Below, piece by piece: positions 47,338-54,526 of a stretch of DNA of 64,000 bases. A program made the translations under genes and the position numbers. The stretch comes from an archaeon (lineage in GTDB: Archaea > Micrarchaeota > Micrarchaeia > Norongarragalinales > UBA97): contig JAGVFW010000004.1 of the NCBI GenBank assembly GCA_020057405.1, positions 96,001 through 160,000 of the forward strand, read 5' to 3'. Every line of letters starts with the position of its first letter. Within the stretch, counting starts at the first letter, position 1. The notes under the pieces are model-generated. The model did not search any database. It was not told where the DNA came from and worked only from the letters and a program-made list of their open reading frames with translations.

Positions 47338-50133
47338 CTAGCCGCGTTCGAGAACGGTCTGGCCGGCAACCGGATCGAGGTTGTAGAGGTCGTAGCCAAC
47401 CCCGTTGTTCACGTCGCGGTTTCCTTGGAAGATGTTGCCTCGCATGCCTAGTATGTTGAAATTCAAGTCGCCAGAATAGTATCCCTGCAGGGCATAGTTG
47501 AGCCGATAGCCTTGCCTGCGTTCGTCTCCGTTTTGGTAGGTTGAACCGGATTGGCCGCACTCGGCATACGCCCGGTTGGACACGTAGTTCGGGTCGACAT
47601 AAACAGTCTGCAGATAGTTCCGACGAACTTCGTTACCAAGCACCTGGTTTTCGTTCCATTGCCTGAAGTACTCGTTCAGAGCTAGTTGCATTACAGCGCA
47701 ATACTTGCCGTTGGTGTTAGTTATTGAATTGTCGGCCAAGTAGTTTCGCATCACTGGCTGATAGAAGAACGGATTTCTTAGCGGGTCGTTAAAGCTCGTT
47801 GCGTCGATTGCGGGCGACCTCATGATAATCGGACCAGTTTCAGCAAGCGTGTTTGAGGCGTACACGACGTCATAAGCGCCGTTGTAAAGGTAGAGCGGCA
47901 GCATCACGTTCGAAAGCTGGTTGTTGTAGATTATGTTTTGGTAGGCGGAGTACGGCACGAGCGTGTAGAAGCTGCCGGCGGCGGGCGGGATGTCCCAAGG
48001 CTTGTCGACAGTCAACTGGCTGTTGGAACGCGAAGTCACTATCCGCACTTGGCCCGCTCCCTGGCCTGAAAGTATCGTCACGGCAGTCCGCGAGTTGAAG
48101 CCGGTCTTGCCCACCCAGTTCTTTGTGGAATCGGTCAGGTAGGTGGCGCCACCGCCTGTTGCAGTGCCGTAATCTTGAATCTGTTCAGTGTCCTCTCGCG
48201 CCTGTTGCGTCATGAACTCTTCTCCATCATTGCGGAATTGATCGTCGTTCTGCGGCCGCTCGCCAATGTTCTGAATACGGTTGTTGATTATCGCTGCGCC
48301 GGGGTCGAAAGAAAATTCTAGGCCGCCGGTTTCGGTCCGGTCGTTCTTGCGGATGCTGTTGTTCAATATGAAGGTGTTGCCGTCGAAGACCGCGTACTTG
48401 AAGTCGGTAAAGAGAATCCGGCCTGCCTCCCGGTCAAAGGTGTTTCCGCGGACAGTCAGGTACTTTCCGTATAATCCCCAAATGGGATACCACCTGCGGC
48501 CGGGATAACGGTAGTTTACGCCCGAAAGCAGTAGGTAATCCGAGTTGACGAAATTCATTGACTTGGAGGAAAGCGCGTTGATGTACAGGTTCTTGAGGAT
48601 AATTTTGGAGGCATAAACGCTGCAGTAGGGCGTCTGGCAGCCGCCGCCCGAATCGGTCCTAATTGAGTGCTCAAGGGCATCACCGCGGTCGGGCGCTTCG
48701 GAGTAATTAACGTTAATCAGAGACAAGTCCATCGCGCCAACTCGCGTGGCGCCGTTCCTAAACGTGATTGCGCCATCGCAGCAGTTGCTGATGTTGTAGT
48801 TGACTTTAGTGAGCAGCGGACCGTCTCCCTTGAGAACCACGTTTGAAGGCAACCAAATGCCGCTGCGGATAAGGTAATCGCCCGTAGGAACGTAAACCGT
48901 ACCGCCGCCAGCAGCTGAAGCGGCAGCAATGGCCGCGTTGAAAGCAGGAATTTCATTCACCAAACCACTGCCTTGAGCGCCATAATCACGCACGTTAAAC
49001 GTCCTTGACGCGATTTGCGCAAACTCGCCAGCCCAGAACACGTCAAGGCCCCAGGGGTCTGAAGAAACGGACGCGCCCCTAACAACGTCGTCTGAAAACG
49101 CGTCGCCAAAGGACCCTCCGAGACCGTTGTTGACCTTCACGCGGTAGTTAACACCTTGGGCAAGTGAAGGGGCAGTCAAGGCGAGGTAATAGGGCGTCGA
49201 CTCCGAACTTAGCACGCTTGCCGCAATCGTGTTGTTCTGGGAATCAACAAACCAAGCTGAAGGCGAGTGACCCGAAACCTGCATGTTTCGACCGAACACC
49301 CTTACCTTGACTCCAGCGTAGGCATACTCCGCGTCAACCATAGTAACGCGCGGCTTGTTCGCAAACCACTCGTTGCTCCGGCCGCCTGACTGGTCCTCAA
49401 GCCAAATAGCATACAATCCAGCTGGCGTCGCTTGTGGAACTCGGCCCTGAAGCACAACGCTCGAATAACTCACGAACTGTATCTGAACTGCAGCGTCACG
49501 AACACCCGTGTCCGAAACACGCTGAACCATCAGCTTGGCTTGAGATTGCGGCGTAAACTTACCGCCAACGAGGTTGAACGCGTCGTCGGGGTTAAGCGAC
49601 TCGCTCCCGTAATAAATTCTGGCGCCCGAATCGCCGGGCTCGGGGGTCGGGCTGGGTGACGGAGATGAAGATGGAGTTGGGGATGGCGAACCGCTTGGCG
49701 TCGGCGAGGGAGAACTGTTTGAAGCGGGACTTGGCGAGCCAATGGGCGTCGGAGACGGCGAAACTGAAGGACCGGGCGTAGGCACAGGCGTAACGACCGC
49801 ACCGCCGACGCAGTAAACTGGATCAACCAAAGTCACCCCGGTACAGGCGGCGAGACACTCATTCCAATAAGTACGGGCGTCAGAAGCGCACACGGGACGG
49901 TAAACCCCGCTGCAACCACAATTAACCGGAATCGGCGCAGGCGTCGGATTCACAGACGGGCTAGGCGACACCTCAGGTTGGGGTGTCGGGGTCGCGCCAA
50001 CATCGCGAGTAGAATTCGTTATCCGGCGGATCAAGTCTGCTGCGTCGTGGAGACCCACGAACGCAAGGCCTAGAATAACGATGCCGAGCACGGTAAAGCC
50101 GATGAAAAGCAAAGCTGGCCGGTCCAAATCCAC
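47338..50133 (-). CDS. Membrane-anchored surface protein: Kazal-like domain, Pro/Ser/Thr linker, Ig-like region, pectate-lyase-3-like beta-helix
   Basis: C.C..VYRPVCASD.RTYWNECLAAC; FNVRDYGA.G.G......FNAAI.......GGGTVYVP.G.Y. Confidence 0.85.
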   Translation of the reverse strand: MDLDRPALLFIGFTVLGIVILGLAFVGLHDAADLIRRITNSTRDVGATPTPQPEVSPSPSVNPTPAPIPVNCGCSGVYRPVCASDARTYWNECLAACTGVTLVDPVYCVGGAVVTPVPTPGPSVSPSPTPIGSPSPASNSSPSPTPSGSPSPTPSSSPSPSPTPEPGDSGARIYYGSESLNPDDAFNLVGGKFTPQSQAKLMVQRVSDTGVRDAAVQIQFVSYSSVVLQGRVPQATPAGLYAIWLEDQSGGRSNEWFANKPRVTMVDAEYAYAGVKVRVFGRNMQVSGHSPSAWFVDSQNNTIAASVLSSESTPYYLALTAPSLAQGVNYRVKVNNGLGGSFGDAFSDDVVRGASVSSDPWGLDVFWAGEFAQIASRTFNVRDYGAQGSGLVNEIPAFNAAIAAASAAGGGTVYVPTGDYLIRSGIWLPSNVVLKGDGPLLTKVNYNISNCCDGAITFRNGATRVGAMDLSLINVNYSEAPDRGDALEHSIRTDSGGGCQTPYCSVYASKIILKNLYINALSSKSMNFVNSDYLLLSGVNYRYPGRRWYPIWGLYGKYLTVRGNTFDREAGRILFTDFKYAVFDGNTFILNNSIRKNDRTETGGLEFSFDPGAAIINNRIQNIGERPQNDDQFRNDGEEFMTQQAREDTEQIQDYGTATGGGATYLTDSTKNWVGKTGFNSRTAVTILSGQGAGQVRIVTSRSNSQLTVDKPWDIPPAAGSFYTLVPYSAYQNIIYNNQLSNVMLPLYLYNGAYDVVYASNTLAETGPIIMRSPAIDATSFNDPLRNPFFYQPVMRNYLADNSITNTNGKYCAVMQLALNEYFRQWNENQVLGNEVRRNYLQTVYVDPNYVSNRAYAECGQSGSTYQNGDERRQGYRLNYALQGYYSGDLNFNILGMRGNIFQGNRDVNNGVGYDLYNLDPVAGQTVLERG

Positions 50134-50190
50134 GAAAAAGTAACTGCAGAACACTATATTTATCTTCACAAGCGGTTTGTCTTACTGCAC

Positions 50191-51074: not shown

Positions 51075-51159
51075 GCAGGGGTGGCAGAGCCTGGCCAAAT
51101 GCGATGGGTTTAGGGCCCATTCCCTTAGGGGTTCGAGAGTTCAAATCTCTCCCCCTGCA
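51075..51159 (+). tRNA. tRNA-Leu(TAG)
   Basis: GCAGGGG/CCCCTGC acceptor, ATGGG-TT TAG GG-CCCAT, long variable arm. Confidence 0.95.
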
Positions 51160-51165
51160 TAGTGT

Positions 51166-51192
51166 AACTTACTAGAGTCTTCCCTCTCCAGC
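51166..51192 (+). repeat. att-like site 1 (degenerate, right half)
   Basis: AACTTACTAGAGTC-TTCCCTCTCCAG vs site 2 AACATACTAGAGTC-ACTCCCCCTGCA. Confidence 0.65.
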
Positions 51193-51251
51193 TTAGGCAG
51201 TCGCCTCAACGCGCCTAGTTGCGAGCAGTACGAGGATAATACTATTTAAAT

Positions 51252-51267
51252 ATTAGAATTTTCTAAT
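51252..51267. promoter_or_regulatory. Palindromic operator (likely ArsR autoregulation) just downstream of TATA
   Basis: ATTAGAA-tt-TTCTAAT between TTTAAA (51245-51250) and ATG 51275. Confidence 0.65.
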
Positions 51268-51274
51268 GTGTTAG

Positions 51275-51589
51275 ATGGACAAGGAGCTTTACAAGATTCA
51301 TGCGGATGTTTGCAAGGTTTTTTCCAACCCGGCGAGGCTGGAAATCCTTGACTTGCTTAGGGGCAAGGGAATGTCCGTTTCCGAACTCACCAGGCGGACG
51401 GGGTTGAGTCAAGCAAACGTTTCGCAGCACTTGTCGGTAATGAAGTCCAAGGGCATCGTGTCTTACAGGCGGAAGGGAAAGAACGTCTATTACTCGCTTT
51501 CAAACCCGAAGGTAGTTAAGGCATTCGACTTGATGCGCGAAGCGCTGGTAGAAAACCTCGCCAAGCGCTTTAAAGGAGGGCGGAACTGA
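51275..51589 (+). CDS. ArsR/SmtB family regulator
   Basis: NPARLEIL..L, SVSEL, SQ.NVSQHL, R.GK.VYYSL. Confidence 0.93.
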   Translation: MDKELYKIHADVCKVFSNPARLEILDLLRGKGMSVSELTRRTGLSQANVSQHLSVMKSKGIVSYRRKGKNVYYSLSNPKVVKAFDLMREALVENLAKRFKGGRN

Positions 51590-51590
51590 A

Positions 51591-51905
51591 ATGGCGAAAC
51601 TGGCGGTAGTTATCAGTTCCAACGAGCCGGAAAAGGCGTGGAACGCTTTCAGGTTCTCAACCCTGGCGCTTGGGAAAAAAGACGAAGTAAGCGTTTTTCT
51701 CATGAATAGTGGCGTCGAATGCCTTGTTGACTCGGAAAAATACGACGTCAAGGCGCTTTCGGACAAATTCGAGCAGAACGGGGGGAAGGTGCTCGCCTGC
51801 GGCACCTGCGTGAAAAACAGGAGCATGGGAAACGTCTGCGAGATTTCAAACATGGAAACGTTCTACAACCTCGTCACCGAGAGCGATAGGGCAATTTACT
51901 TCTAA
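51591..51905 (+). CDS. DsrE/DsrF-like sulfur-relay/redox protein
   Basis: V.VFLM..GV, LACGTC...R. Confidence 0.88.
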   Translation: MAKLAVVISSNEPEKAWNAFRFSTLALGKKDEVSVFLMNSGVECLVDSEKYDVKALSDKFEQNGGKVLACGTCVKNRSMGNVCEISNMETFYNLVTESDRAIYF

Positions 51906-51916
51906 AACCAACCCGC

Positions 51917-51957
51917 GCTTCAGACTCTAGAAACATACTAGAGTCACTCCCCCTGCA
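51917..51957 (+). repeat. att-like site 2
   Basis: GCTTCA-GACTCTAG-aaacata-CTAGAGTC-A-CTCCCCCTGCA. Confidence 0.85.
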
Positions 51958-51969
51958 TGTTCTATCTTT

Positions 51970-52557
51970 CTATAGTCTGCGCTGAAAAAGAATAGATTTC
52001 ACTCGACTGCCCAGCCACGTGTGAAAATATGATTTAACCGGGGTGAATCCGTCGCGAAGAAATTGACTAATTCTAGGCTTGTTCGCGGCATGTGTATCGC
52101 TAAGTGCGTACGTACAACCAATAGAGCGAGCATGCGACAATCGGGCGTCAGTAAGCATGGTGGAGATTTTTTCTCGACGAAAGTCTCTATCTACGAATAC
52201 TCCGTGCAAATGATAGTAGTTTCCAGGCTCAAGTAACTTATCGAATCGATGATTGTGATATTCGGGATCATAGCGCTCGCCCAATGCCATTCCAACAATA
52301 CGGTTTCTCGAATTCCTTGCAACGAGAAGAATGGCACTGTCGCCACGTTTTTCACGCAAGGCCACCATCATCTTGGCTAATTTGGTTGCGTCCCCTCGTT
52401 TTTTCAATACCTTTTCGTGAGGGGGCTCAGTGTAACACTGAAAGAAAATGTCTCCGATTCTTCGCATATCTGTTCTTGAAGGATTCCGCCCAAGTTCGTG
52501 GATCGTGAATGTCAGTTGACTAGCACCAGCCATCGTGGGAACACCTGTAGATACCAT
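51970..52557 (-). CDS. GNAT acetyltransferase
   Basis: L.GVFV..DFRR.KI...L, N.P......R.GF; visibly more AT-rich than core genes. Confidence 0.85.
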   Translation of the reverse strand: MVSTGVPTMAGASQLTFTIHELGRNPSRTDMRRIGDIFFQCYTEPPHEKVLKKRGDATKLAKMMVALREKRGDSAILLVARNSRNRIVGMALGERYDPEYHNHRFDKLLEPGNYYHLHGVFVDRDFRREKISTMLTDARLSHARSIGCTYALSDTHAANKPRISQFLRDGFTPVKSYFHTWLGSRVKSILFQRRL

Positions 52558-52606
52558 GACATCTGGCCATTAAAAATATCACATTCAACGAAAATCCCGA
52601 GCACAC

Positions 52607-52646
52607 CTTCAGACTCTAGTACGTTTCTAGAGTTACTCCCCCTGCA
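52607..52646 (+). repeat. att-like site 3
   Basis: CTTCA-GACTCTAG-tacgttt-CTAGAGTT-A-CTCCCCCTGCA. Confidence 0.85.
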
Positions 52647-52725
52647 GCTCGTATCTTTCCAAAGTCTTACGGTTCGCGCCAGTAGGCATATATAGCTGAA
52701 TTACGTCTATTTACATGGTGATTGC

Positions 52726-52974
52726 ATGCGAACTACACTTGAATTCGGGGGTTTGCCCGAGGCTATCCTCCAGAAGGCTGTTGAGTTGGGCATAGCGCGG
52801 TCCAAGACTGCTGCGCTCAGGATGGGAATTTTCTCTTTAAACAAGGAATTTCATCTCGTGGAAAATCCCGAGGCTGAACTCGTTTCACGCAAGCTGGCCG
52901 AAGAAGAGAAGGAAATGAAGAAAAACAAAGTCAAGTATTTGAGCGAGAAGGAAGCTCTTTCAAAGTACAGGTGA
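52726..52974 (+). CDS. Putative ribbon-helix-helix antitoxin
   Basis: GGTGA SD; beta-helix-helix N-terminus (G..RSKT.A.R.G), charged C-terminus; precedes toxin-like ORF. Confidence 0.7.
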   Translation: MRTTLEFGGLPEAILQKAVELGIARSKTAALRMGIFSLNKEFHLVENPEAELVSRKLAEEEKEMKKNKVKYLSEKEALSKYR

Positions 52975-52980
52975 GGCTCT

Positions 52981-53253
52981 TTGGACTTAACGCCTTACCG
53001 TCTCGACTTCAAGCCCGGTTGGGACCGCCACTTCAAGGACTTCGACAAGAGCGTACAGCAACTAATTCTGAAAAAGCTCGAGCACATGAAACAACCATTG
53101 CAAGCGAGAGGATTGCACAGCTCGCGTTACCGCGTAGAAGAAGCGGGAGGCTATAGGATCGCCCTCATTCAAGACGACGAAAACAGAATCAAACACATTC
53201 ATTTTGTCGGCAACCACCCGCAATACGAAAAATGGTATTCCGGAAAGGAATAG
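52981..53253 (+). CDS. RelE/ParE-like toxin
   Basis: Y.L.F...W...FK..DKS.Q..I.KKL, G.YRI, FVG.H..YE. Confidence 0.75.
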   Translation: MDLTPYRLDFKPGWDRHFKDFDKSVQQLILKKLEHMKQPLQARGLHSSRYRVEEAGGYRIALIQDDENRIKHIHFVGNHPQYEKWYSGKE

Positions 53254-53282
53254 CTTCAGACTCTAGTCGCTCCCCCCCTGCA
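53253..53282 (+). repeat. att-like site 4 (collapsed hairpin)
   Basis: GCTTCA-GACTCT-AGTC-GCTCCCCCCCTGCA; spacer and part of the arms deleted. Confidence 0.8.
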
Positions 53283-53332: not shown

Positions 53333-54526
53333 ATGGCTACGGATTACTTCGGCAAGTCAGTTGAACTGCACAAGAAGCTAAAGGGCAAGATTTCGGTAGA
53401 GCCAAAAATCCGCATCAAGACACGCGAGGACTTGAGCCTCGTCTACACGCCCGGCGTGGCACAGCCATGCAAGGACATTGCAAAGAACCCCGAGCTCGCC
53501 TTCGACTACACGATTAAGGGAAATTCAGTCGCCGTGGTAAGCGACGGAAGTGCAGTCCTGGGGCTAGGCAACATTGGCGCCAAGGCAGCAATTCCAGTAA
53601 TGGAAGGCAAGGCGCTGTTGTTCAAGGAATTTGCCGACATCGATGCTTTCCCATTGTGCCTTGACACGCAGGATGCAGAGAAAATCATCGAGACAGTCAA
53701 GGCAATTGCACCCGTATTCGGCGGAATCAACCTCGAGGACATTGCCGCACCAAAGTGCTTTTTTGTTGAAGAGTCGCTCCAGGAATTAGGCATCCCGGTG
53801 ATGCACGACGACCAACACGGCACTGCTATCGTCGTTCTCGCTGGATTGTTTAACGCGACCAAAGTGAGCGGCAAGCCCCTCGAGGCAATGAAGATTGTCA
53901 TCAGCGGAAGCGGCGCTGCAGGAACTGCAATCGCCCGCATACTCTCCTGCTACGGCGACTTTGACAAGACCTGCAAGAGCGTCAAGGACATAATCGTGGT
54001 TGACAGCAAGGGCATCGTCGTGACCGGCAGGCCGGACTTAAACCACGCCAAGCTCGAGCTGTCCACGCACACTAACGAGGAAAATGTCGAGGGAACGCTT
54101 AACGACGCCCTCGTTGGCGCGGATGTCTTTATCGGAGTCAGTGCGCCGGGAGTGCTTAAAGCAAGCCACGTTAAACTAATGGCGAAAAACCCAATCATCT
54201 TCGCACTCGCAAACCCTGTTCCCGAAATCATGCCCGACGAGGCCAAGGCGGCGGGCGCAGCCATCGTCGCTACGGGCAGAAGCGATTTTCCAAACCAAGT
54301 CAACAACGCACTCGCGTTCCCGGGCGTCTTCCGCGGCGCACTTGACGCAAAGGCCGTGCGCATCACCGACGGCATGAAAGTCGCAGCTGCACGGGCAATT
54401 GCCGCCTGCGTGAAAAAGCCATCAACCGAGGAGATAATTCCGGCAGTGCTTGACAGGAATGTTGCAAAGAAAGTTGCCGAAGCAGTGAAGGCCGCCGCAA
54501 TCAAGGAAGGCGTAGTGCGCCACTAA
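53333..54526 (+). CDS. NAD(P)-dependent malic enzyme
   Basis: YTPGVA, DGSAVLGLG, MEGK, GGINLEDI, HDDQHGTA, TGRSDFPNQVNN. Confidence 0.95.
   Translation: MATDYFGKSVELHKKLKGKISVEPKIRIKTREDLSLVYTPGVAQPCKDIAKNPELAFDYTIKGNSVAVVSDGSAVLGLGNIGAKAAIPVMEGKALLFKEFADIDAFPLCLDTQDAEKIIETVKAIAPVFGGINLEDIAAPKCFFVEESLQELGIPVMHDDQHGTAIVVLAGLFNATKVSGKPLEAMKIVISGSGAAGTAIARILSCYGDFDKTCKSVKDIIVVDSKGIVVTGRPDLNHAKLELSTHTNEENVEGTLNDALVGADVFIGVSAPGVLKASHVKLMAKNPIIFALANPVPEIMPDEAKAAGAAIVATGRSDFPNQVNNALAFPGVFRGALDAKAVRITDGMKVAAARAIAACVKKPSTEEIIPAVLDRNVAKKVAEAVKAAAIKEGVVRH

Follow-up and report, generated by a model that had tools for sequence, protein, structure and literature searches.

Integrase-less gene cassettes stacked behind a tRNA-Leu gene of a micrarchaeal genome and their probable link to a clade of tRNA-Leu-specific tyrosine integrases

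Introduction

How DPANN archaea, whose genomes are very small, acquire and exchange accessory genes is poorly understood. Here we ask this question of a single locus, a 2.2-kb array of short gene cassettes that follows a tRNA-Leu(TAG) gene in a member of the Micrarchaeota (assembly GCA_020057405.1, contig JAGVFW010000004.1). The array lies in a stretch of 64,000 nucleotides (positions 96,001 to 160,000 of the contig, forward strand), which we call the window and in whose coordinates we number positions unless a contig is named. An earlier note, made from the sequence of the window, had described the array as an integrase-less, integron-like system in which accessory genes accrete in tandem at a tRNA gene and are mobilised in trans. 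What, then, builds such a stack when no recombinase is encoded beside it? We examined the array itself, the rest of the genome (1.22 Mb in 17 contigs, estimated to be 90.6% complete), related genomes and metagenome contigs. We find that sites of the same kind recur at several loci of this genome and in relatives, where they adjoin the genes of one clade of tyrosine integrases. The array probably grew by the tandem stacking of mini integrative elements without an integrase at the attachment (att) site of these enzymes.

Results

A tRNA-Leu-anchored array of site-bounded cassettes

The site-bounded array anchored on tRNA-Leu is a real feature of the window. ARAGORN identified the tRNA, and the last 11 nt of its gene (51149-51159), CTCCCCCTGCA, which end at the discriminator base, form the common core of all the sites. 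An intact site has the general form CTTCAGACTCTAG-N7-CTAGAGT(C/T)-A-CTCCCCCTGCA: site 2 (51918-51957) reads CTTCAGACTCTAG-AAACATA-CTAGAGTC-A-CTCCCCCTGCA, and site 3 (52607-52646) is the same apart from its spacer, TACGTTT, and its right half, CTAGAGTT. These motifs occur far more often than expected by chance. With up to 2 mismatches, GACTCTAG-N7-CTAGAGT gave 4 matches in the window (two sites, each on both strands) against 0.07 expected, and 0 of 100 shuffled sequences reached 4. For CTCCCCCTGCA with up to 1 mismatch the window has 6 matches where 1.19 are expected, and 4 of the 6 lie in the array; none of 100 shuffles reached 6. At the same tolerance, CTTCAGACTCTAG gave 3 against 0.06 expected.

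The earlier note had counted four related sites, and this needs qualification. Two are intact and one, site 4, is degenerate: it retains the left half, has lost the spacer and the right half, and carries two extra C in the core, so that it equals a site at position 79620 of contig C6 minus 13 nt. What was counted as site 1 has no inverted repeat and consists of the tRNA end and a 24-nt right arm containing CTAGAGTC. Nor do the unit lengths given there (~725, ~650 and ~607 bp) agree with the spacing between successive 11-mer starts, which is 798, 689 and 636 bp. The spacer of site 3 (52620-52626) is, with one change, the reverse complement of that of site 2 (51931-51937), and the pair looks like a repeat-spacer unit inverted between the two sites.

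Further arrays and a second arm type in the same genome

Four sites at one locus understate the extent of the system. Exact copies of CTCCCCCTGCA number 18 in the genome, against ~0.6 expected for an 11-mer on both strands (hand arithmetic), and 17 of the 18 are accompanied by recognisable arms or tRNA sequence. These 17 are spread over five loci: 4 are on the contig of the window (3 in the window and 1 at C11:90744), 6 on C6, 5 on C16 and 2 on C1. They are anchored on tRNA-Leu(TAG), on an intron-bearing tRNA that we read as Leu(CAA), and on tRNA 3' fragments on C6, where the array begins at a 32-nt fragment. ARAGORN names the intron-bearing tRNA on C16 (59045-59171) Val; our reading as Leu(CAA) follows from the anticodon loop CTCAAGG and the long variable arm. 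The intron-bearing tRNAs with a long variable arm on C16, L030 and L045 all carry the names Val(cac) or Asp(atc) in the ARAGORN output. Contig C16 ends 200 nt past tRNA-Leu, inside a repeated arm, so that its end is probably an assembly break on the repeat.

Two types of arm occur in this genome, type A, as in the window, and type B, an imperfect palindrome around CTCCCCC. The type-B core, seen in 13 distinct sites, is GTCTAAG(C/T)GCA / CTCCCCC / TGCACTTAGAC, and the full site is CTTCTAGAC-N3-GTCTAAG-(C/T)GCA / CTCCCCC / TGCA-CTTAGAC-N3-GTCTAGAAG, with 11-bp inner arms and a 7-bp centre. Inverted inner arms around a 7-bp centre are a layout typical of the core sites of tyrosine recombinases. 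Hybrid sites exist in both senses, left B with right A at C16:54533 and left A with right B at C6:79620; hence, at each site, the left arm is the end of the unit before it and the right arm the start of the unit after it. Type-B units have only 88-113 nt at their start and 56-78 nt at their end in common, the cargo between being unrelated, and arms alone make up two "empty" units of 21 nt and ~103 nt. Altogether ~13 kb of this 1.2-Mb genome is arranged as site-bounded cassettes. Outside the window they carry two Fic proteins, TauE, a 923-aa Kazal/beta-helix protein, a PIN protein with an AbrB-type partner, and several proteins of no recognised kind. One cassette on C16 (53558-54460; L021:2559-3461) encodes a nucleotidyltransferase of the PolyA_pol type (class II CCA-adding/poly(A) polymerase family), which is unusual as archaeal cargo. 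Type-B left arms also contain a perfect 18-bp palindrome, GAGACACAATTGTGTCTC (for example at C6:86783 and C16:54533); in loci L109 and L142 it is found immediately upstream of the TATA-like box that precedes an integrase gene, which suggests a possible role as an operator or arm-type site.

The same arms adjoin a clade of integrases in relatives

In related genomes the arms immediately adjoin integrase genes. Twice in G007 the gene of a 413-aa integrase comes straight after a type-A right arm, which is itself preceded by a tRNA fragment and the 11-mer. G020 has two tRNA-Leu genes with an integrase after each, and one of these integrases belongs to an 11.9-kb unit with a second 11-mer at its far end. 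The right arm of site 1 in the window is identical in 21 of 25 nt (hand count) to the arm between tRNA-Leu(CAG) and an integrase gene at locus L075. The integrases found beside arms are 43-60% identical to one another and ~400 aa long, and they combine a Phage_integrase domain with a C-terminal zinc ribbon. The 11.9-kb unit of G020 (L039, G020:C1:566500-582500) stands behind an intron-bearing tRNA-Leu(TAA) and carries type I restriction-modification-like genes, and a 1032-aa open frame in it has the integrase as its first ~360 aa.

A scan of genome contigs yielded 255 relatives of the integrase; among the 78 records listed, the majority are titled Candidatus Micrarchaeota. For these 78 of the 255 we related the type of arm to the identity with the G007 integrase. 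At 69% identity or more, a type-A right arm lies no more than 330 nt upstream of the gene at 11 of 22 listed loci, and a type-B arm at none; at 61% or less, B-like arms occur at 9 of 56 listed loci and type A at 1 of 56.

The two kinds of unit also meet within one array. At locus L080, an integrase unit of 3.29 kb comes after tRNA-Leu(TAA), and beyond the site that ends it lie an integrase-less unit of 0.95 kb, with only an NYN-domain gene, and another site. The only sequence that the two units have in common is their first 32 nt (100% identical) and their last 35 nt (97%). This argues that the functional site is compact, ~60 bp, and that small units carry the same arms as an integrase-bearing neighbour. 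The claim that such arrays are distinct from integrase-bearing islands is not supported, in view of both observations, the arms that flank integrase genes behind tRNA-Leu and the arms shared by both kinds of unit at L080.

With at most 1 mismatch, the type-A site was found in 11 of 68 genomes and 9 of 35 genera of the order, and a control with the reversed pattern gave 0. It was also found in 17 metagenome contigs, some with arrays that contain no integrase, such as L159, in which tRNA-Leu is followed by four units of 545-1811 bp, and L160, which holds a truncated integrase fragment. The cargo of the metagenome arrays includes Fic, AbiEii and a beta-lactamase-family protein, among others; the gene of the last of these (Beta-lactamase2, 1e-20) is at L159:3180-4109. 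A census of the DNA fetched from outside this genome gave 33 distinct site-bounded units, 7 with an integrase (3.3-6.6 kb) and 26 without (13 bp to 4.4 kb, median ~1.0 kb). A viral contig collection contained 0 type-A sites and only 5 relatives of the integrase (four at 38-41% identity, one at 28%), and thus gave no indication of a viral origin.

The same cassette in different arrays

Gene order in relatives, in which the earlier note had sought a sign against its own reading, is not fixed. Homologues of both genes of cassette 3, a putative antitoxin and a RelE-like toxin (85% and 78% amino acid identity), occur in a different array in G005, a genome of another genus. There a degenerate site beside a membrane-protein gene precedes the cassette, an intact type-A left arm ends it, and its neighbour is another toxin-antitoxin cassette, not the malic enzyme gene that follows the array in the window. 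The G005 island that holds this cassette also contains a homologue, 80% identical, of the Fic gene of the C6 array, ~1.7 kb past the last recognisable site. In groundwater contigs of relatives, homology to the window breaks at the sites: on the tRNA side it stops at 51160/51161 (the tRNA ends at 51159), and on the malic enzyme side it starts at 53273, in site 4. One groundwater contig of 1401 nt is homologous only over 52651-53246, that is, over cassette 3 alone. Two apparent joints inside the RelE gene came from a divergent contig, and we gave them no weight.

Where strand exchange would occur

The overlap region of a tyrosine recombinase must match between the two partners. Only the 11-mer is shared by the tRNA genes and every site. 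In the type-A repeat the 7-nt spacer has no counterpart in the tRNA and varies among the sites, which rules it out as the overlap region; the 8-7-8 inverted repeat is thus unlikely to be the crossover core. Conservation over 40 distinct type-A sites is 95-100% in the left half, CAGACTCTAG, and 57-100% in the right half. On average 7.0 of the 8 positions can pair if G-T is counted; all 8 pair in 17 of the 40, one pair is a T-T mismatch in 21 of the 40, and two sites only show a one-sided change that restores a pair. Because the left half is fixed while the right half varies, no clear compensatory changes are seen, and the repeat seems to fit protein-binding half-sites better than a conserved hairpin.

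Recombinases encoded in this genome

No recombinase is encoded in the 64-kb window, and the sole PF00589 match in the genome is a 382-aa protein on contig C17, so that the absence of an integrase in or near the array, as first described, stands. The C17 gene sits in a 5.3-kb element (C17:33521-38934; L006, L162) behind tRNA-Phe, with a 21-bp direct repeat of the tRNA end. As an insert at tRNA-Phe with a repeat of its own, this element makes the gene the integrase of another element. The protein is 30-35% identical to the integrases of the tRNA-Leu clade, and in all we found nothing in support of it as the enzyme of the array. Its sequence is 51% identical to that of an integrase beside tRNA-Asn in G005. 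Against the cut-off of 220 bits for the NCBIfam XerA model it scores 86 bits, and against that of 265 bits for TIGR02249 (IntI) it scores 32.5 bits. The assembly thus contains no XerA-grade recombinase, although at 90.6% completeness this does not show its absence from the organism. There were 0 matches to the Y1 HUH transposase family PF01797 in the genome, and no serine recombinase above cut-off.

Cassettes of the window and their surroundings

The coordinates of the array are collected in Table 1. Pfam supports the cargo of the first two cassettes (ArsR, HTH_5, 1.2e-14; DsrE, 9.4e-13; GNAT, Acetyltransf_1, 7.3e-10), and the description of the cargo as accessory holds for the GNAT and the toxin pair. 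Reading of the sequence bears out the tight packing, with 12, 12 and 0 nt between stop codon and site and a TATA-like box for each unit, that of cassette 1 at ~51243-51254. The stop codon of the GNAT gene falls within the right arm of cassette 2. GC content is 0.45-0.51 within the array and 0.53-0.58 alongside it.

Table 1. Coordinates of the array in the window
Feature	Coordinates	Strand	Basis
tRNA-Leu(TAG), intact	51075..51159	+	ARAGORN
Type-A right arm of cassette 1, 24 nt, TAGTGTAACTTACTAGAGTCTTCC	51160..51183	+	sequence
Cassette 1 cargo: ArsR-type regulator (51275-51589) and DsrE-like protein (51591-51905)	51275..51905	+	Pfam, open reading frames
Site 2: left arm 51918-51946 (CTTCAGACTCTAG-N7-CTAGAGTCA), core 51947-51957, right arm of cassette 2 51958-51981	51918..51981	+	
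Cassette 2 cargo: GNAT acetyltransferase, GC ~0.46	51970..52557	-	open reading frames, Pfam
Site 3: left arm 52607-52635, core 52636-52646, right arm of cassette 3 52647-52670	52607..52670	+	
Cassette 3 cargo: 82-aa putative antitoxin (52726-52974) and 90-aa RelE-fold toxin (predicted; 52981-53253)	52726..53253	+	
Site 4, degenerate terminal site: CTTCAGACTCTAG-TCG-CTCCCCCCCTGCA	53254..53282	+	sequence

Cassette 3 had been described as a ribbon-helix-helix (RHH)/RelE-like toxin-antitoxin pair, and it is the RelE half of this description that is borne out. The 90-aa open reading frame has no Pfam or NCBIfam match, and its sequence matches in the PDB are at chance level (E at least 0.49). Its AlphaFold model (pLDDT, the model's own confidence score, 71) has RelE, 2khe, as its top Foldseek match (E 1.2e-4, TM-score 0.62), and the other top chains are RelE, YoeB and HigB at TM-scores of ~0.6, so that the model predicts a RelE fold. 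For the 82-aa open reading frame there is likewise no Pfam or NCBIfam match, and its PDB sequence matches are again at chance level (E at least 0.68); the RHH label is for this reason unverified. In G005 the toxin-like gene of the cassette neighbouring the RelE-like copy has an internal stop, as does that copy itself, and the toxin genes there may be decaying.

Downstream of the array lies a malic enzyme gene (53333-54526), and an EamA gene is found upstream. Also upstream (47338-50169, minus strand) is the gene of a 943-aa secreted-looking protein with Pro/Ser/Thr-rich linkers, a 52-aa stretch of which is 46% identical to the 923-aa Kazal/beta-helix protein of the C6 cassette and overlaps its Kazal domain.

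Discussion

The anatomy of the site, its presence at several loci and in relatives, its adjacency to one clade of integrases and the occurrence of the same cassette in different arrays are all direct observations. The reading that we consider probable is that the array arose by tandem accretion of integrase-less mini integrative elements at the att site of a tRNA-Leu-specific clade of tyrosine integrases that is common in the lineage. We do not regard it as a stand-alone, recombinase-independent system. Each unit would bring a compact att site of ~60 bp, made up of a left arm, CAGACTCTAG-N7-CTWGAGYY, the core, and a right or start arm that carries CTAGAGTC 12 nt after the core; the core would restore the 3' end of the tRNA. 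The integrase would exchange strands inside the shared core, probably in CTCCCCC, and integration at the tRNA or at an existing site would rebuild the tRNA end and leave a copy of the core at the far end of the insert, and in this way repeated events would stack units. Since an integrase-less unit keeps both arms, the integrase of a related element could excise it as a circle and re-insert it. Such mobilisation in trans is plausible from the sequences; we infer it, as we do the position of the crossover and any present activity of the array in this genome.

Several points weigh against this reading. A tblastn search of the assembly with seven related integrases matched the C17 locus only and found no integrase of the tRNA-Leu clade. 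Site 4 is degenerate and truncated, the RelE-like copy in G005 (L024 ~8100, G005:C34) has an in-frame TAG stop, and G001, a genome of the same genus, has the toxin pair with no recognisable sites. The ArsR gene has a homologue in G002 (89% amino acid identity) with at most a degenerate site upstream. In L159 a Fic gene, 77% identical to that of the C6 array, lies between different arms, so that arms and cargo do not always go together. In the comparison of the interval between tRNA-Leu and the malic enzyme gene, which the earlier note had proposed, the order is not kept in relatives: in the loci fetched from G002, G003 and G004 the malic enzyme gene (60-64% amino acid identity) is not next to tRNA-Leu or a site, and G001, which is 73% complete, has no malic enzyme match. 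As synteny is not kept, no clean empty site could be shown. The motifs behind the arm-to-integrase counts were written after seeing the data, which makes the association an indication and not a test, and the loci of the census were fetched by site or by integrase and so form a biased sample. Lastly, no excision product was seen; the public sequencing runs hold at most 6% of the sampled words of the window (two groundwater runs); their contigs come from relatives and provide no depth, circles or joints for this organism.

Some of these points would be expected if the array were a fossil, its units being deletion remnants of larger integrase-bearing elements that no longer move singly or in trans, and its repeats scars. 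The lack of a cognate integrase in the assembly, the truncated site 4, the stop in the G005 RelE copy and the site-less copy in G001 all fit, as do the truncated integrase fragment in L160 and the likeness between type-B arms and the regions next to the integrase in L109 and L142, which extends to the palindrome GAGACACAATTGTGTCTC. We nevertheless consider this rather unlikely, because conservation of the left half reaches 95-100% over 40 distinct type-A sites, both arms are kept in most units, the same cassette recurs in different arrays, and at L080 the arms of an integrase-less unit are nearly identical to those of its integrase-bearing neighbour. The view of the earlier note, in which the array is a dedicated platform for capturing cassettes that has no relation to integrase-bearing islands and relies on XerA or another host recombinase, we hold to be improbable. 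No array of this genome has an integrase in it or nearby, and the cassettes are very small and their arms compact, as such a platform would have them; the same arms, however, directly adjoin integrase genes in relatives, the assembly has no XerA-grade match, and its only PF00589 protein belongs to the tRNA-Phe element.

A mechanism that acts on single-stranded DNA, with the 8-7-8 repeat as substrate of attC-like folding or of an enzyme of the HUH/IS200 type, is in our view very improbable. In the window the two halves of the repeat match fully or almost fully, and a mean of 7.0 of 8 positions can pair over 40 sites, G-T included, but a full set of 8 pairs is present in only 17 of the 40, a T-T pair is found in 21, clear compensatory changes are missing, the core is not GTTRRRY, and searches of the genome gave neither a Y1 HUH transposase match nor a serine recombinase above cut-off. 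There is next to no chance, in our estimate, that the repeat has nothing to do with recombination and is a terminator, an RNA-processing signal that mimics the 3' half of a tRNA, or a miniature inverted-repeat transposable element (MITE). By reading, the hairpin and the 3' strand of the acceptor faintly resemble a T-arm with an acceptor end, yet a 5' acceptor strand and a T-run are both missing, cassette genes run in both directions, and the sites co-occur with integrases in relatives. A terminator or MITE dispersed over the genome would also not give the distribution found, in which 17 of 18 copies of the 11-mer stand with arms or tRNA sequence at five loci. The version in which the repeat is a tRNA minihelix or RNA-processing signal was dropped because of the missing 5' acceptor strand and the genes on both strands.

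We thus keep to accretion at the att site of the tRNA-Leu integrase clade. A bolder proposal, which we put forward tentatively and hold to be somewhat more doubtful than not, is that this clade of zinc-ribbon integrases and its ~60-bp tRNA-Leu att site sustain a true gene-cassette economy in Micrarchaeota-like DPANN archaea. Promoter-bearing single-gene cassettes (toxin-antitoxin, Fic, AbiEii, GNAT, regulators) would leave their arrays as circles and enter, in trans, any of several tRNA-Leu-derived sites, which would amount to a functional analogue of integrons, of independent origin, in archaea whose genomes are very small. If movement in trans is real, these archaea would have a compact counterpart of the gene exchange known from integrons and from cis-mobilizable elements (CIMEs), and a short, well-defined att site together with a new clade of integrases would be at hand to test. 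All the cassettes rest on one 11-nt tRNA-Leu core, and the same types of site recur across an order-level group. Island finders that require an integrase in each array member would miss such arrays, and the site repeats break metagenome assemblies at such loci.

Comparison with known systems

In the titles and opening parts of abstracts that our literature search covered, we found no description of this system, and nothing for Micrarchaeota together with tRNA-Leu. What we did not find described is the combination: small and numerous units at several loci of a 1.2-Mb archaeal genome, a compact site and a lineage-wide clade of integrases. Each part has parallels elsewhere. Small modules bounded by recombinase sites, often with toxin-antitoxin or resistance genes and with no recombinase of their own, are known as pdif modules from Acinetobacter plasmids, where they lie between dif-like sites of the host XerC/D in alternating orientation. 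The array here differs in that its sites are chromosomal direct repeats of a tRNA end, its recombinase is element-encoded in relatives and no XerA-grade protein was found; the host Xer recombinase and the dif-like 11-6-11 sites that mark a Xer/dif system are not seen here. The Y1 transposase of IS200/IS605 or other HUH elements is missing too (0 matches to PF01797).

Integrons and clusters of attC sites lacking integron integrases (CALINs), which also occur in archaea, consist of short accessory cassettes split by recombination sites, often have no local integrase and can be mobilised in trans, according to the available text of one study, in which neither "Micrarchaeota" nor "tRNA" is mentioned (PMC9668308). 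The array here differs from integrons in its core, CTCCCCCTGCA, which is a tRNA end, in its cassettes, which have TATA-like boxes of their own and are not co-oriented, the GNAT gene being on the opposite strand, and in the absence of an IntI-type integrase from the genome and of an attI site. The attC sites of integrons have the form R''-L''...L'-R' with a GTTRRRY core. Judged by these features against a core that is a tRNA end, the sites here are not attC sites, and the distinction from attC integrons that the earlier note had drawn is upheld.

Closer in their target are the integrative elements that insert into tRNA genes. The islands in tRNA genes that Islander catalogues encode a tyrosine integrase and lie between the intact tRNA and a displaced 3' fragment of it, sometimes in tandem arrays; the available text reports 3919 islands, with 125 tandems of at least two and 4 of at least three (PMC4383910). 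Because an integrase is required in every array member, integrase-less stacks are, by the design described in that text, filtered out (PMC4383910). The array here shares the intact tRNA at one end and the direct repeats of its 3' part that bound the insert; it differs in having no cognate integrase in the window or in the 90.6%-complete assembly, whereas one is present beside the arms in relatives. The tycheposons of Prochlorococcus are, as far as the available text describes them, islands beside tRNA genes of a streamlined genome, with repeated integrations split by partial tRNA copies, with remnants and with additional partial tRNAs; those screened there are larger and have an integrase (bioRxiv 10.1101/2020.12.28.424599). 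Here most units are without an integrase, a single tRNA-Leu core is used throughout, and the host is a DPANN-type archaeon.

The CIMEs formed by tandem accretion among ICESt1-type elements of streptococci, as the available text presents them, keep attL and attR, have no integrase genes and stack through site-specific integration at the 3' end of the target gene (PMC5704250). The archaeal units differ in size and number (~0.5-3 kb, most with a single gene or operon, and as many as five or six in tandem), in their presence at several loci of a 1.2-Mb genome, in their ~60-bp att site and in the absence of a conjugation context. The likeness lies in the architecture: cassettes 1-3 are each held between two sites with no recombinase inside, and their arms are cognate to those of integrase-bearing elements (32 and 35 nt at L080; 21 of 25 nt between the arm of site 1 and that of L075). 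On the best reading, the array is in effect integron-like and stacked like CIMEs, with its cognate integrase encoded elsewhere in the lineage.

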